Origin: a virus
Lineage: Duplodnaviria > Heunggongvirae > Uroviricota > Caudoviricetes
DNA: 44,004 bases
IMG/VR virus record: IMGVR_UViG_2579778670_000004
Direction: 5' to 3' (one strand)
Under the pieces are notes generated by a model. That model saw only the letters and a list, made by a program, of their open reading frames with translations. It was not told where the DNA came from and did no database searches. Positions 11,485 through 43,304 of this stretch are shown here, piece after piece. How positions within the stretch are numbered: position 1 is the stretch's first letter; each line of letters starts with the position of its first letter. Both the position numbers and the translations under genes were made by a program.

Positions 11485-11515
11485 GGTTCCCCCTTAAGTG
11501 GGACCGAGGTCCCAC

Positions 11516-11896
11516 TTAGTATTTTGAATACTCGCTGTTTTCGCTGGACGTGTGAGGCTCTAAAAAAATATTCGTGAGCCCTGTGCCATCAGGTTGAGGC
11601 TCTTTAACCACGTAATCGGTCCAGCCAGACCAGGTAACAGAGCCGTCAGGTTCGATGCTGCGCTGCTTTGGAACCTGGACGACGTCACGCGCAACAACGC
11701 CAGCGACGTCGTCCGAGAGCGCCGTCAGGCTCGTTACTGTACCGGTAATAAAACCAGCGTGAGGAACGTCAACGCGCGCGTAAGGCTCGTTGAAAATAGC
11801 GATAATGGGGTCGGTTTTACCGCGTAATTTAACGGGCCGTCCCCACTCACGGATCATCTCCTCGTCGCCGGCCCGGAGGTCATCGTAGTAGCTCAT
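11516..11896 (-). CDS. Head-tail joining region protein (unassigned)
   Basis: 126-aa ORF; position only. Confidence 0.3.
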   Translation of the reverse strand: MSYYDDLRAGDEEMIREWGRPVKLRGKTDPIIAIFNEPYARVDVPHAGFITGTVTSLTALSDDVAGVVARDVVQVPKQRSIEPDGSVTWSGWTDYVVKEPQPDGTGLTNIFLEPHTSSENSEYSKY

Positions 11897-16650: not shown

Positions 16651-16880
16651 AATCGAACTCCCACGGGCCGACGGCGTCCCGTACTCAGACCGAGCTGTGA
16701 TTTCAGCTCGATAATGTACGTTCGGAGCTGCTCAATACTCGCCTGCGAGTATTGATAGCTCCGGTTATTTCCTGCTGAATCGCCGTGAGACAGCGACACG
16801 GTCGATTTACCCGTTAATAATTTGTGCAGAGCGATTTCCGCTTCCAGCAGTCGTTCTGTTAAAACCTCGCGCGACGTCAT
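16647..16880 (-). CDS. Head-tail joining protein gpW
   Basis: 77-aa ORF between terminase and portal; pattern like lambda W. Confidence 0.6.
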   Translation of the reverse strand: MTSREVLTERLLEAEIALHKLLTGKSTVSLSHGDSAGNNRSYQYSQASIEQLRTYIIELKSQLGLSTGRRRPVGVRL

Positions 16881-23270: not shown

Positions 23271-23383
23271 TATTTTATGGCATTTGTCATAACGCCAAAT
23301 ACAATGAGGGAATAATGAACAATTATATTCACGTCGTGAATTTTATTAAACGGTTTTATAGGGGATTAAACCGTTTATGGTCA

Positions 23384-24025: not shown

Positions 24026-24268
24026 AATTACCTCGAATAATAAAAACTGCACTATTTGCACAATTTATTATTCGTTTTCACGCCGCTGAGTTCTATAAAA
24101 AAGAAAAAACCTCCGAGGCAGGGTTTTGTTATGGCTCGTTAAATCATCATCCAACTTTTTAGACTGAACGGTGATACTTGCAAATATTTGAAAATATGGG
24201 CTGGAACCCTATCTTATGATGTGCCTGGTAATTTATATTGTTGGGTCTTTATATCATGAGGAATCACT

Positions 24269-26248: not shown

Positions 26249-26282
26249 TGACAGTCCGCTCTGTGCCATAAGCGGACTGTCA
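26249..26282. other. Perfect 11-bp inverted repeat (TGACAGTCCGC / GCGGACTGTCA) with 12-nt loop; possible terminator or protein-binding site
   Basis: Seen directly in sequence, in the intergenic space downstream of both convergent genes. Confidence 0.4.
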
Positions 26283-28352: not shown

Positions 28353-29276
28353 ATGAGATTAAAATACTCAGTACTCTTACTCGCCATTGCCCTTACAGGC
28401 TGTGATAACAAAAAAGATGAGATCGGTTGTTCTTCGGAAATAACCCAGTCAGCTCTCATGGATTTATTAAAAAAATCTGCTTATGAAGGACTCTCTGAAC
28501 AGGTCGATAAATACCCTGATGTCACTAATCAGACCAAACGAAGCACACTGGACAAGATCAAACTAGCCATCTCTGAGATCTCCACAACATCAAGTGACAC
28601 GGGCAGCACAATGAAAACTTGTGAAGGGACCGTGACGATGACTCTATCTGCGAACGAGTACGTCCAGCTTTCAGATGCTTACAGAAAGAATTTTAATCGT
28701 AATCTCGATAAGCAAATGGAAAGCCTGTTTTTGGAGAACAACGCAAACGCCTTTTCAAAACGTATCACCTACACCGTGCAGGCGACCGACGATCAGAAAA
28801 ACGTTTTTGTAAAAACCTCTACTGATAATCCGATATCAGTGGGCGCCGCTTTACTGACATCGCTTTCCATTATCACCCCGATCGTTGAGCAGCAGAAAAT
28901 CCAGCAGGCTAAGGATGCCCAACAGAGTCAAATTGAAGCGGAACAACAGGTGCAACTCAGGGCGCAAGAACAGGCTAAGTATGAGGCGGAGAAGCAAATA
29001 GAGAGACAGGCACAACTTCAGCCGCAAAAAGCTGACAACCTTGATCAGTCCCGAATGGCATTTGCGAATGCCGACTCTGATTTGAGTACCGTCTGGAGCA
29101 AGTTAACCCCGGCGAAGAAAAAAGATTTGCTGCCTTCTCAGCGTCAGTGGATCAAAACTAAGGATGCTATGTGCGGTAAAGTTTCAATGCAGGGAACAGA
29201 TGCTGAAGTCAAGAAAATGGTCGACTGCCAGACGCAAATGACCCTTTCAAGAATCGCTTTCCTCAGAAACCAATAA
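28353..29276 (+). CDS. Lipoprotein with C-terminal DUF1311 (LprI-like) domain
   Basis: 307-aa ORF; signal peptide plus lipobox LTGC; Gln/Glu-rich coiled-coil linker; C-terminal pattern QRQWIKTKDAMC...DCQTQMTLSRIAFL fits the DUF1311 signature as remembered. Confidence 0.55.
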   Translation: MRLKYSVLLLAIALTGCDNKKDEIGCSSEITQSALMDLLKKSAYEGLSEQVDKYPDVTNQTKRSTLDKIKLAISEISTTSSDTGSTMKTCEGTVTMTLSANEYVQLSDAYRKNFNRNLDKQMESLFLENNANAFSKRITYTVQATDDQKNVFVKTSTDNPISVGAALLTSLSIITPIVEQQKIQQAKDAQQSQIEAEQQVQLRAQEQAKYEAEKQIERQAQLQPQKADNLDQSRMAFANADSDLSTVWSKLTPAKKKDLLPSQRQWIKTKDAMCGKVSMQGTDAEVKKMVDCQTQMTLSRIAFLRNQ

Positions 29277-29450: not shown

Positions 29451-30269
29451 TCAAAATGCTGAATTAGCAACGGATATAGCCGACTTTTTCCCCATTACCA
29501 TCAATTTATCCAGTGTCATACTTCGCAGATTGTCGCTGTGGATCACCAGATACCCTGCCCGCTCAGCGATCTCTTTGAAAGCGTCAAAGGTCATCAGATG
29601 TTCGCCTTTGGCAACATGGCGCATCCCGGTCACTTTTCCATTTTTGATAGTGGTGATAAAAGAAAAATCTGGAATGGTTGGGTGATTTTCATCGAGTAGC
29701 AGGCAGTGGATGTATTCAATCGCCTCTAACATTTGCGTCTGTGACAGTTGTTCTATGTGAGAGACGGCGAAGCGTTGATGAATCATGGTGTAGGCATCGG
29801 GATACATCATGCCTTTCTTGCCGACCAGTATATTAACGGCATCACGCAAGGGAGTACGGTCATCGGTAGTTGTACTCCGCCTCTCTGGACGCTGGCTAAA
29901 ATAACAATCTTCCAGCTTTTCGAAAACTTCCCAGGCCTGTTCTGTTTCCAGCATTTTGGCATGGCGAGCTGCGCCGCGTTCTGTCCAGAGAATGAGGGAT
30001 CGGGTATGTTTAGCAACTGACTGACTATCTGTCAGTCTGTTTTTGAAGTCGCGTAATTCATTACCTTCCAGCTTAAAAAAATGCTTTCCTACGACAAATC
30101 TGGCGATGTTGCGCTTGAAGTTTTGCTGGATACCATTTACTTCCGTGCCATACAAACTGGCAAGCAATTCAGTAGTGATGACGGGAAGTTGGTTATGATG
30201 TAGCGGAGAAAGGGATTCCGCAGATATTTGGACTGTCATCGCAGTGGCCTCACTTAGTGTTTTTTTCAT
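29451..30269 (-). CDS. Phage antirepressor (ORF6N-type N-terminal domain, KilAC-type C-terminal domain)
   Basis: N-terminal pattern LPVITTELLASLYG...NFKRNIARFVVGKHFFKLEG matches antirepressor domains as remembered. Start moved to the ATG at 30267..30269; the track ORF begins at a TTG at 30287. Confidence 0.6.
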   Translation of the reverse strand: MKKTLSEATAMTVQISAESLSPLHHNQLPVITTELLASLYGTEVNGIQQNFKRNIARFVVGKHFFKLEGNELRDFKNRLTDSQSVAKHTRSLILWTERGAARHAKMLETEQAWEVFEKLEDCYFSQRPERRSTTTDDRTPLRDAVNILVGKKGMMYPDAYTMIHQRFAVSHIEQLSQTQMLEAIEYIHCLLLDENHPTIPDFSFITTIKNGKVTGMRHVAKGEHLMTFDAFKEIAERAGYLVIHSDNLRSMTLDKLMVMGKKSAISVANSAF

Positions 30270-30511
30270 CACCACCAGCGACGCCAATCATCTGGTGGTG
30301 AGCTGTGCAGGGTTGGCGTAACCGGCTAAGTGAACCCGGCGCTTCCACAGAAGCCCCCACACAGCCCACCATAATGCGAATGTGGCCGTGCCTAACACAT
30401 AAAAAAACCGCTAACGCGGCTATGCGTCACTTAGATATCCGGGACGCCAATCCCGGCAACCGATTTTGCGGCTGCGCGGAAACTATAGCCCCGGACTTTT
30501 TCTAAGTCAAT

Positions 30512-43002: not shown

Positions 43003-43089
43003 TGGTACCCGGAGCGGGACTTGAACCCGCACAGCGCGAACGCCGAGGGATTTTAAATCCCTTGTGTCTACCGATTCCACCATCCGGGC
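43003..43089 (-). tRNA. leuZ: tRNA-Leu (anticodon UAA)
   Basis: Reverse complement reads GCCCGGATGGTGGAATCGGTAGACACAAGGGATTTAAAATCCC...GGGTTCAAGTCCCGCTCCGGGTACCA, a canonical 87-nt tRNA-Leu with encoded CCA. Confidence 0.97.
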
Positions 43090-43101
43090 TCGGGAAAAAA
43101 G

Positions 43102-43175
43102 TGGAGGCGCGTTCCGGAGTCGAACCGGACTAGACGGATTTGCAATCCGCTACATAACCGCTTTGTTAACGCGCC
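43102..43175 (-). tRNA. cysT: tRNA-Cys (anticodon GCA)
   Basis: Reverse complement GGCGCGTTAACAAAGCGGTTATGTAGCGGATTGCAAATCCGTCTAGTCCGGTTCGACTCCGGAACGCGCCTCCA. Confidence 0.97.
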
Positions 43176-43228
43176 AAATTCTTCAGGCCTTTCAGCCAGA
43201 CATCCGCTGACGCCGATGCCTTTTAAAC

Positions 43229-43304
<76 letters not shown>

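Follow-up and report, generated by a model that had tools for sequence, protein, structure and literature searches.

An inverted repeat as the probable outer stem of a conserved RNA stem-loop in a P1-immI-type antirepressor leader

In phage P1, the 77-nucleotide (nt) RNA C4, which is processed by RNase P at its 5' end, blocks translation of icd, and Rho termination then follows. Control of icd-ant by this c4 antisense RNA in the immI regions of P1 and P7 is said to have been described by Citron and Schuster in 1990, and the idea that loops hold the complementary sequences apparently goes back to the P1 work of that year. The P1 GenBank record (NC_005856) annotates the elements a1 and b1, the c4 RNA (344-420 of our P1 locus, L106), a2 and b2. 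Here we describe a locus of this kind in a 44,004-nt stretch of viral DNA (Caudoviricetes; IMG/VR record IMGVR_UViG_2579778670_000004), the whole of which we call the window. Its minus strand carries a perfect inverted repeat ahead of an antirepressor-like gene with an ORF6N domain, and we consider it likely that this repeat forms the outer stem of an RNA stem-loop, itself conserved, in a P1-immI-type (C4/IsrK) antirepressor leader, in which control would be exerted via antisense RNA.

The other system to be borne in mind is isrK-orf45-anrP of Gifsy-1 in Salmonella. There, the isrK promoter drives the downstream antirepressor, orf45 is translated and its translation is coupled to that of anrP, and AnrP induces antQ and the prophage (Hershko-Shalev et al. 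2016, PMC4825925). That paper terms the region orf45/STnc1160, rather than C4 with a2/b2 targets, and its authors cite the P4 CI RNA as a structural analogue. Stable STnc1160, which is the C4 homologue, depends on the isrK promoter in Salmonella, and both IsrK and STnc1160 are highly expressed in Salmonella lysogens. IsrK and c4 are linked only by Rfam's overlapping models and by this P4 analogy; otherwise they are treated as separate systems. The C4/immI system is already known, and our addition to it is modest: a conserved a2 stem-loop, mutually exclusive with the C4 stem, that belongs to the family and is yet absent from the Rfam models and from the Gifsy-1 constructs of nt 1-180.

The repeat and the module in which it lies

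Read on the minus strand, the repeat is TCACCACCAG-N13-CTGGTGGTGA, a perfect match of 10 base pairs (bp) with arms at 30269-30278 and 30292-30301 (inverted-repeat scan); the order across it is 5'-UCACCACCAG AUGAUUGGCGUCG CUGGUGGUGA UG...-3'. An earlier note on this DNA had recorded a perfect 9-bp repeat at 30270-30300, and this was borne out (CACCACCAG at 30270-30278 and CTGGTGGTG at 30292-30300, with 13 nt between), the pairing extending to 10 bp. As an isolated RNA, the repeat is predicted to fold with -24.1 kcal/mol (z = -2.4). We derived the chance expectation from mononucleotide shuffles of the window and an analytic estimate. With spacers of 3-20 nt, shuffled windows contain on average 2.6 perfect 9-bp and 0.8 perfect 10-bp inverted repeats, and at least one perfect 10-bp repeat is found in 44% of the shuffles; the real window contains about six distinct 10-bp repeats. 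The existence of the repeat is by itself within chance, and its meaning has therefore to be drawn from context and from conservation with covariation in relatives. A chance repeat of no function would fit the 0.8-2.6 perfect 9-10 bp repeats with short spacers that are expected per shuffled window, but it is scarcely credible in view of the conservation of the repeat at the same position, with compensatory changes, in all of the C4-type relatives examined, P1 included. Perfect repeats also occur elsewhere in the window, with arms of 10 bp or more and spacers no longer than 20 nt, at 11495-11518, 11677-11714, 16732-16755, 23347-23377, 24035-24073 and 26249-26282, the last of these having 12-bp arms.

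The context is that of a module of the P1-immI / Gifsy-1-isrK type, in which the defining features of C4/immI are all present except for the P1-specific icd. Its parts follow one another on the minus strand in the order promoter, IsrK/a1b1, C4, a2 stem-loop, b2 with the Shine-Dalgarno (SD) sequence, and ORF6N antirepressor gene (Table 1). An Rfam scan returned three families that exceed their gathering scores just upstream of the repeat, and these stand in P1 order. The C4 match ends with CUCACCA followed by CCAGA, and the C4 closing stem was recovered independently by the inverted-repeat scan and by minimum free energy (MFE) folds; mature C4 would span 30370-30294 (77 nt). C4 is encoded ~70 nt upstream of b2/SD, and b2 is placed 22 nt downstream of a2. 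Between b2 and the antirepressor gene there is no icd-like small gene; the ORF6N gene of 262 amino acids (aa) comes directly after b2/SD. From its ORF6N domain and its 66% identity to Gifsy-1 AnrP, we infer that the controlled gene is probably an antirepressor. The promoter-like sequence has the same placement as TTGACA-17-TATATT upstream of Gifsy-1 isrK, and by analogy it would function as a promoter in the window also. C4 would be co-transcribed with its target from this one promoter and released by processing, the window itself contributing only the promoter-like site and the common strand to that argument.

Covariation of the target sites and of the stem

The two putative target sites are perfect complements of segments of C4: a2 (UUGGCGU) pairs 7/7 with C4 a' (ACGCCAA), and b2 (CUAAGUGA) pairs 8/8 with the C4 loop b' (UCACUUAG). 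Relatives were collected by two routes. A search with the antirepressor protein led to at least 25 distinct loci in which Rfam C4 or sRNA-Xcc1 lies 35-60 nt before the start, and a pattern taken from the C4 interior only yielded 79 distinct types. Across 18 different a' sequences, a2 complements its own a' 7/7 in 64 of the 68 distinct relatives. At the second site, where each C4 loop was compared with its own leader, the longest complement is 9 nt at the median, versus 4 nt for non-cognate combinations (95th percentile 6), and it ends inside the SD. That a2 tracks its own a' and b2 its own b' across about 60-65 distinct relatives shows, at the level of sequence comparison, that the hairpin loop is an antisense target, and the arrangement represents the P1/P7 heteroimmunity principle at large scale.

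The a' and b' specificities assort independently (for example, L107 versus L170, and L109 versus L139), a2 and b2 always being matched to them; at least 18 a' and 47 b'-loop variants are found among the relatives. This independent assortment suggests modular recombination, which would produce many heteroimmunity classes. With both targets tracking their own C4 throughout, the relatives would amount to a large, recombining set of P1/P7-type heteroimmunity specificities. Contig L139 (9289-11266, minus strand) carries three complete isrK-C4-gene modules in tandem, 656 nt apart. Each has a distinct a'/b' and matching a2/b2, and these are followed by nearly identical ~120-aa genes of the Rha family (PF09669, 30 bits). 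Contigs L123, L159 and L192 also belong here; other contigs carry two modules. A mechanical open reading frame (ORF) call fuses each module into a 220-aa frame.

A further observation concerns the stem. A hairpin of 8-12 bp between the C4 tail and the sequence downstream is present in 17/17 distinct C4-type loci from the protein search, and in none of these loci was the observed hairpin energy reached by more than 7% of the shuffles. A fixed 4-nt register from a2 to the 3' arm is valid in only ~47 of 65 sequences, and a MAFFT alignment of 67 distinct sequences was used instead. In that alignment, the ten pairs of the outer stem are 80.6% paired versus 74.3% in column shuffles (0/500), and cells changed on both sides number 47 versus 20 expected (0/500); slid registers give 34-61%. 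The inner helix of 3 bp that flanks a2 is 89.4% paired, versus 63.0% in the shuffles (0/500), with GC, CG, AU and UA represented at each of its pairs. Compensated variants of the stem include CAUCACC/GGUGAUG, CGCCACC/GGUGGCG and UACCACC/GGUGGUA, as well as a wholly different one, CCGCUCUCCC/GGGGAGCGG; the P1 stem is CCUGCCACC/GGUAGCAGG, with a2 in its loop. Compensatory changes are thus a property of both the outer stem and the inner helix, and the stem, to judge from the aligned relatives, is under selection. Because the inner helix around a2 covaries, a2 would be held in a loop of ~8 nt at the apex, which in the window is AUUGGCGU and is identical to the loop that displays a1 in IsrK.

Half-site covariation would be equally expected of a DNA operator, where a dimeric repressor bound to the palindrome would keep transcription from entering the antirepressor gene. 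The earlier note had offered an operator as one of its two interpretations, and the perfect palindromic character of the repeat is in keeping with it; the strand asymmetry of the G·U and A·C counts (18 vs 14) does not tell RNA hairpin and DNA palindrome apart. Nevertheless, we regard an operator as very improbable. The spacing of the arms varies from ~10 to 19 nt among relatives, unlike that of operators, and one of the arms is fixed by its role in the C4 closing stem. Furthermore, the loop covaries with an RNA segment 30 nt upstream and the inner helix also covaries, both of which fit RNA and not protein binding. Finally, the site lies ~200 nt inside the transcribed leader, whereas the P1 C1 operator, Oc4, is annotated at the promoter and not at a2.

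Table 1. Features of the antirepressor leader module in the window
Feature	Position	Strand	Details
Sigma-70-like promoter TTGACT-17-TATAGT	30482..30510	-	10/12 consensus matches; predicted transcript start near 30475
IsrK / c4-a1b1 element	30401..30488	-	a1, b1 and intrinsic terminator
c4-a1b1 (RF03163)	30488-30436	-	52.9 bits; gathering score 46.7
isrK (RF01394)	30475-30401	-	80.4 bits; gathering score 50
a1 UUGGCGU	30450-30444	-	within 8-nt hairpin loop AUUGGCGU of IsrK
b1 CUAAGUGA	30434-30427	-	sequence identical to b2
IsrK intrinsic terminator	stem 30421-30406, U-run to ~30400	-	from terminator scan
C4 antisense RNA (RF01695)	30291..30376	-	75.2 bits; gathering score 45; full model 1-87
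orf45-like upstream ORF, 40 codons	30250..30372	-	AUG 30372-30370 in C4 5' strand; stop UGA 30252-30250
C4 b' UCACUUAG	30333-30326	-	hairpin-2 loop
C4 a' ACGCCAA	30319-30313	-	junction
C4 closing stem, 3' strand	30312-30296	-	followed by tail CCAGA 30295-30291
Upstream arm UCACCACCAG	30292..30301	-	last 6 nt of C4 closing-stem 3' strand (30301-30296) and first 4 nt of C4 tail
Loop AUGAUUGGCGUCG	30279..30291	-	holds a2 UUGGCGU (30287-30281)
Downstream arm CUGGUGGUGA	30269..30278	-	last base is the A of the non-conserved in-frame ATG 30269-30267
b2 CUAAGUGA	30257-30250	-	overlaps true Shine-Dalgarno GAGG 30251-30248 (site 30248..30257)
ORF6N antirepressor-like gene, 262 aa	29451..30239	-	Pfam PF10543, 77.5 bits; PGAP WP_001531776.1

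Translation start and competing leader conformers

The significance of the stem depends upon where the antirepressor begins. The earlier note had placed the repeat immediately 5' of the antirepressor ATG and had taken GGTGGTG, within the stem, as its Shine-Dalgarno sequence. An in-frame ATG does abut the repeat (30269-30267), but the start that RefSeq/PGAP assigns to the ORF6N protein is 30239 (MTVQISAE...), and the true SD is the GAGG that lies 8 nt ahead of that ATG. Gifsy-1 AnrP (STM2616) is 66% identical over 137 aa (E = 4e-63) and aligns from residue 1 (MTTQISVE); the starts of the homologues fall at the equivalent M-T-x-Q, and an SD followed by an ATG is found there in every relative. 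The triplet that abuts the repeat is ATA in Gifsy-1, and ATA, AGT, ATT and so on in relatives; L040 has the ATG, out of frame. A start at the upstream TTG (30287), which the earlier note had named as grounds for refuting its reading, is not supported, that TTG being part of a2 (TTGGCGT). Since the real start is 30239, GGUGGUG is not the SD of the gene and the stem is without its initiation signals: the functional SD and AUG sit 18-30 nt downstream of the stem, hence outside it. The annotated start of the antirepressor should remain 30239.

Sequestration of the SD by the stem was accordingly rejected, on the evidence of the PGAP annotation, the homologues and the non-conserved abutting ATG. The corresponding explanation of the repeat, namely a cis hairpin that hides the SD-like GGUGGUG and the adjacent AUG 30269 and directly gates antirepressor translation, finds almost no credence with us. 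Folding, the check that the earlier note had proposed, gives a divided answer: the isolated hairpin is stable, as noted above, and an in-frame ATG does abut it, but in the full leader the hairpin is essentially unpopulated (probability ~0.001). On the same side, GGUGG ends only 2 nt before the AUG, too close for an SD; the abutting ATG is missing not only from Gifsy-1 but from most relatives; and PGAP and all homologues start 30 nt downstream, behind GAGG-N8-ATG. What survives of the translational control that the earlier note suggested is that this is the post-transcriptional control region of the antirepressor; the sequestration of GGTGGTG does not.

We then considered the repeat as part of a leader with alternative folds. 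The hairpin and the C4 closing stem have 6 nt in common (30301-30296), and the hairpin and the base of the closing stem are therefore mutually exclusive. When a1:a' and b1:b' pairing is enforced in the 254-nt leader of the window, the closing stem is lost and the hairpin forms with 10/10 pairs. In the 255-nt leader of Gifsy-1, the unconstrained MFE fold is this cis-paired conformer, with 7/7 pairs of the hairpin. As modelled, it corresponds to 'structure A', which is translationally silent and dominant on native gels, and in which a1:a' pairing has been proved with the compensatory mutants G28/C162 and G31/C159 (PMC4825925). The Gifsy-1 experiments used nt 1-180 (PMC4825925), a construct that ends before the 3' arm of the repeat; the hairpin thus lay outside their view.

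Drawing upon the literature on P1 and Gifsy-1, we propose that one promoter would transcribe IsrK/a1b1, C4, the a2 stem-loop, b2 with the SD, and the ORF6N antirepressor gene. C4, cut from the same transcript, would pair with a2 and b2 and block ribosomes at the antirepressor SD, and this occlusion would keep the prophage repressed. The stem would form only when the C4 closing stem is open, that is, in an alternative conformer in which a1b1 is paired in cis with a'b'; there it would park the C4 tail and present a2 in the apical loop for recognition, acting without hiding an SD. More tentatively, and with a good deal less confidence than we place in the stem-loop itself, we hypothesize that the hairpin is the third element of a conserved switch. 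The C4 tail would toggle between the closing stem, in a processable tRNA-like state that leads to the repressor RNA, and the downstream arm, in an unprocessed, cis-paired state with a2 at the apex that leads to the antirepressor mRNA. The addition of a':a2 pairing in cis to that of tail and arm would create a putative H-type pseudoknot, in the order a', tail, a2, arm. Were this switch to be real, IsrK would be an a1b1 decoy that titrates C4/STnc1160, which would explain the activation of anrP by IsrK in trans and would unite the IsrK and c4 literatures.

Several points weigh against the stem-loop interpretation. Comparison of sequences establishes which parts there are and in what order, that a' covaries with a2 and b' with b2, that the stem covaries, and which start codon is the true one, whereas all function in the window is assigned by homology. 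At equilibrium, folding of the window leader gives the 17-bp closing stem a probability of ~0.99 and leaves the hairpin at the value given above, and forcing the hairpin in the unprocessed leader costs ~5 kcal/mol. Were C4 processed as it is in P1, the 5' arm would be removed together with it, and the mRNA fragment could then form no such hairpin. In the common register, the inner helix of the window itself is weak, with A·C, U·G and G-C as its pairs. As to the comparisons, no account is taken of phylogeny in the shuffle controls; in the MAFFT alignment, the sequences that diverge most are misaligned (the effect of which is conservative); the additional loci came from a pattern in which part of the C4 interior is fixed; and the G·U and A·C counts do not discriminate between RNA and DNA. 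Moreover, the tail hairpin of the sRNA-Xcc1-type relatives is short and individually not significant, with a2 outside its loop. Since the loop of that hairpin is without a2, the display of a2 cannot be the only role of the stem.

The last of these points would suit a processing signal, whereby the hairpin between tail and downstream sequence marks or guides formation of the C4 3' end, its loop being cut by an endonuclease and then trimmed. In support, the annotated mature C4 of P1 ends exactly at the boundary of 5' arm and loop (L106 420), the Xcc1-type relatives keep a tail hairpin in which the loop lacks a2, and the 5' side of the loop is A/U-rich. On the other hand, the closing stem, which a tRNA-like substrate of RNase P requires, is in competition with the hairpin, and the strong covariation of the inner helix around a2 points to a2 display. 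We judge a processing signal to be rather unlikely.

Somewhat less unlikely, though still doubtful, is an upstream-ORF model of the Gifsy-1 type, which is compatible with the stem-loop interpretation. Ribosomes on the orf45-like ORF would melt the repeat and re-initiate at the antirepressor AUG, with IsrK activating in trans, and the repeat may matter as an obstacle for the ribosome to unfold. Translation of Gifsy-1 anrP needs both IsrK in trans and orf45, which is itself translated (PMC4825925, Table 1C and western blot). An equivalent ORF in the window crosses C4 and the repeat and ends beside the antirepressor start, 10 nt before ATG 30239. In addition, a2 and the 3' arm of the window (GAUUG-G-CGUCGC-U-GGUGGU) can pair with the SD-AUG region (GCCACU-GCGAUG-A-CAGUC) in a 17-bp helix (window 30222-30291; -21.4 to -23.8 kcal/mol, stronger than at any other of 57 loci), a helix that would yield to a translating ribosome. 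Against the model, the ORF does not reach the 3' arm at 18 of 54 distinct loci, the P1 frame has only 14 codons, the peptide is not conserved, and P1-like processing of the RNase P type would cut within the AUG of the ORF; nor is the helix between the arm and the translation initiation region conserved. Two candidates were rejected on these grounds. At a third of the loci the orf45-like ORF is lacking or ends prematurely, and so it cannot be the general reason for conservation of the repeat. The helix from arm and a2 to the initiation region is not a family feature, having -12.7 kcal/mol in cognate versus -12.6 kcal/mol in non-cognate combinations (p = 0.43 over the 57 loci; against shuffles, p = 0.04).

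The frame that begins at the C4 AUG is of interest in its own right. It crosses the 3' arm in 36 of 54 distinct loci, is open in 35 of 54 versus 39 of 108 control frames, which raises the question of selection, and is both open and in frame through the start of the downstream gene in 32 of 54 distinct relatives. Such a frame can pass for coding sequence and so give rise to over-extended gene calls.

Distribution and likeness to described systems

At an identity of 99% or more, a 1.4-kb region around the module is shared by 452 E. coli records; it is present in 490 of 5426 complete E. coli genomes (~9%) and is always chromosomal. RefSeq/PGAP places no RNA gene in the interval from a 73-aa ORF to the ORF6N gene in an identical prophage copy (L001 3289-3562, equivalent to window ~30512-30239), and in ~450 complete E. 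coli genomes neither IsrK nor C4 is annotated. As for the surroundings, a plus-strand gene at 28353-29276 converges on the antirepressor gene and encodes a lipoprotein-like member of the LprI family (lysozyme inhibitor, PF07007), possibly a prophage accessory (moron) gene. Further away, the minus strand at 43006-43304 carries a cluster of three tRNA genes (Rfam tRNA, 54-69 bits).

Two described systems resemble the locus at a distance. Elements of the sRNA-Xcc1 type (RF02221) lie 35-45 nt before the starts of homologous ORF6N antirepressors, as C4 does, and two downstream sites complement their junction and loop, the second of them on the SD; there is also a short 3'-tail hairpin. They differ in that they match another Rfam model, in that the tail hairpin has 4-9 bp and a loop of 5-8 nt without the first target, and in that no isrK or a1b1 match lies upstream. 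Such loci occur in other bacteria (L017, L037, L038, L054, L069, L085, L086 and L090, at about 1370-1500 in each). The P4 CI RNA, with seqA and seqC, is like C4 a processed immunity RNA flanked by complementary targets on its own transcript, but it acts through premature transcription termination of replication genes and belongs to another sequence family with other controlled genes.

Gifsy-1 isrK-orf45-anrP is the closest relative of the window's module, with 71.9% nucleotide identity over C4 and the 5' half of the gene. This was seen with blastn; a megablast of the window region against the phage collection gave no match. The Rfam matches to isrK, C4 and c4-a1b1 fall at the same places in both, and the equivalent repeat in Gifsy-1 is CACCACC-N19-GGUGGUG, with GAUUGGCGUC in its loop. 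As in that dual sRNA/mRNA locus, an IsrK-like element with its own terminator is followed in the window by an ORF into which transcripts would read through. Gifsy-1 orf45 is the counterpart of the window's 40-codon ORF; its stop overlaps the anrP AUG (AUGA), whereas in the window the stop is 10 nt upstream. The b' specificities also differ (CGGUGAU in Gifsy-1, UCACUUAG in the window), as do the predicted ground states, which are the cis-paired conformer with hairpin in Gifsy-1 and the C4-folded one in the window.

P1 immI has the same order as the window, namely promoter, a1 b1, C4, a2, b2/SD and controlled gene, and its C4 matches the same Rfam model, with a mature length of 77 nt in both (predicted for the window). 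The two-site complementarity, with b2 on the ribosome-binding site, is likewise common to both, P1 b2 adjoining the start of icd, and P1 GUUAGUGAGGCC and window CUAAGUGAGGCC are nearly identical. In P1, a2 lies 3 nt after the C4 3' end, in the loop of the hairpin between tail and downstream sequence (412-420 / 433-441), and the placement in the window is equivalent. In contrast to P1, the window is without icd, such that b2/SD directly precedes the antirepressor gene, an arrangement in which Gifsy-1 also lacks icd; its antirepressor is an ORF6N protein, versus Ant1/Ant2 of P1; its a1b1 element carries its own terminator (the IsrK form); its a'/b' specificities are different; and it represents an integrated lambdoid-type E. 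coli prophage, whereas P1 is a plasmid prophage. Standing between the two, the a2 stem-loop offers a testable bridge between the P1 c4 model, which is one of repression, and the Gifsy-1 IsrK model, which is one of activation.

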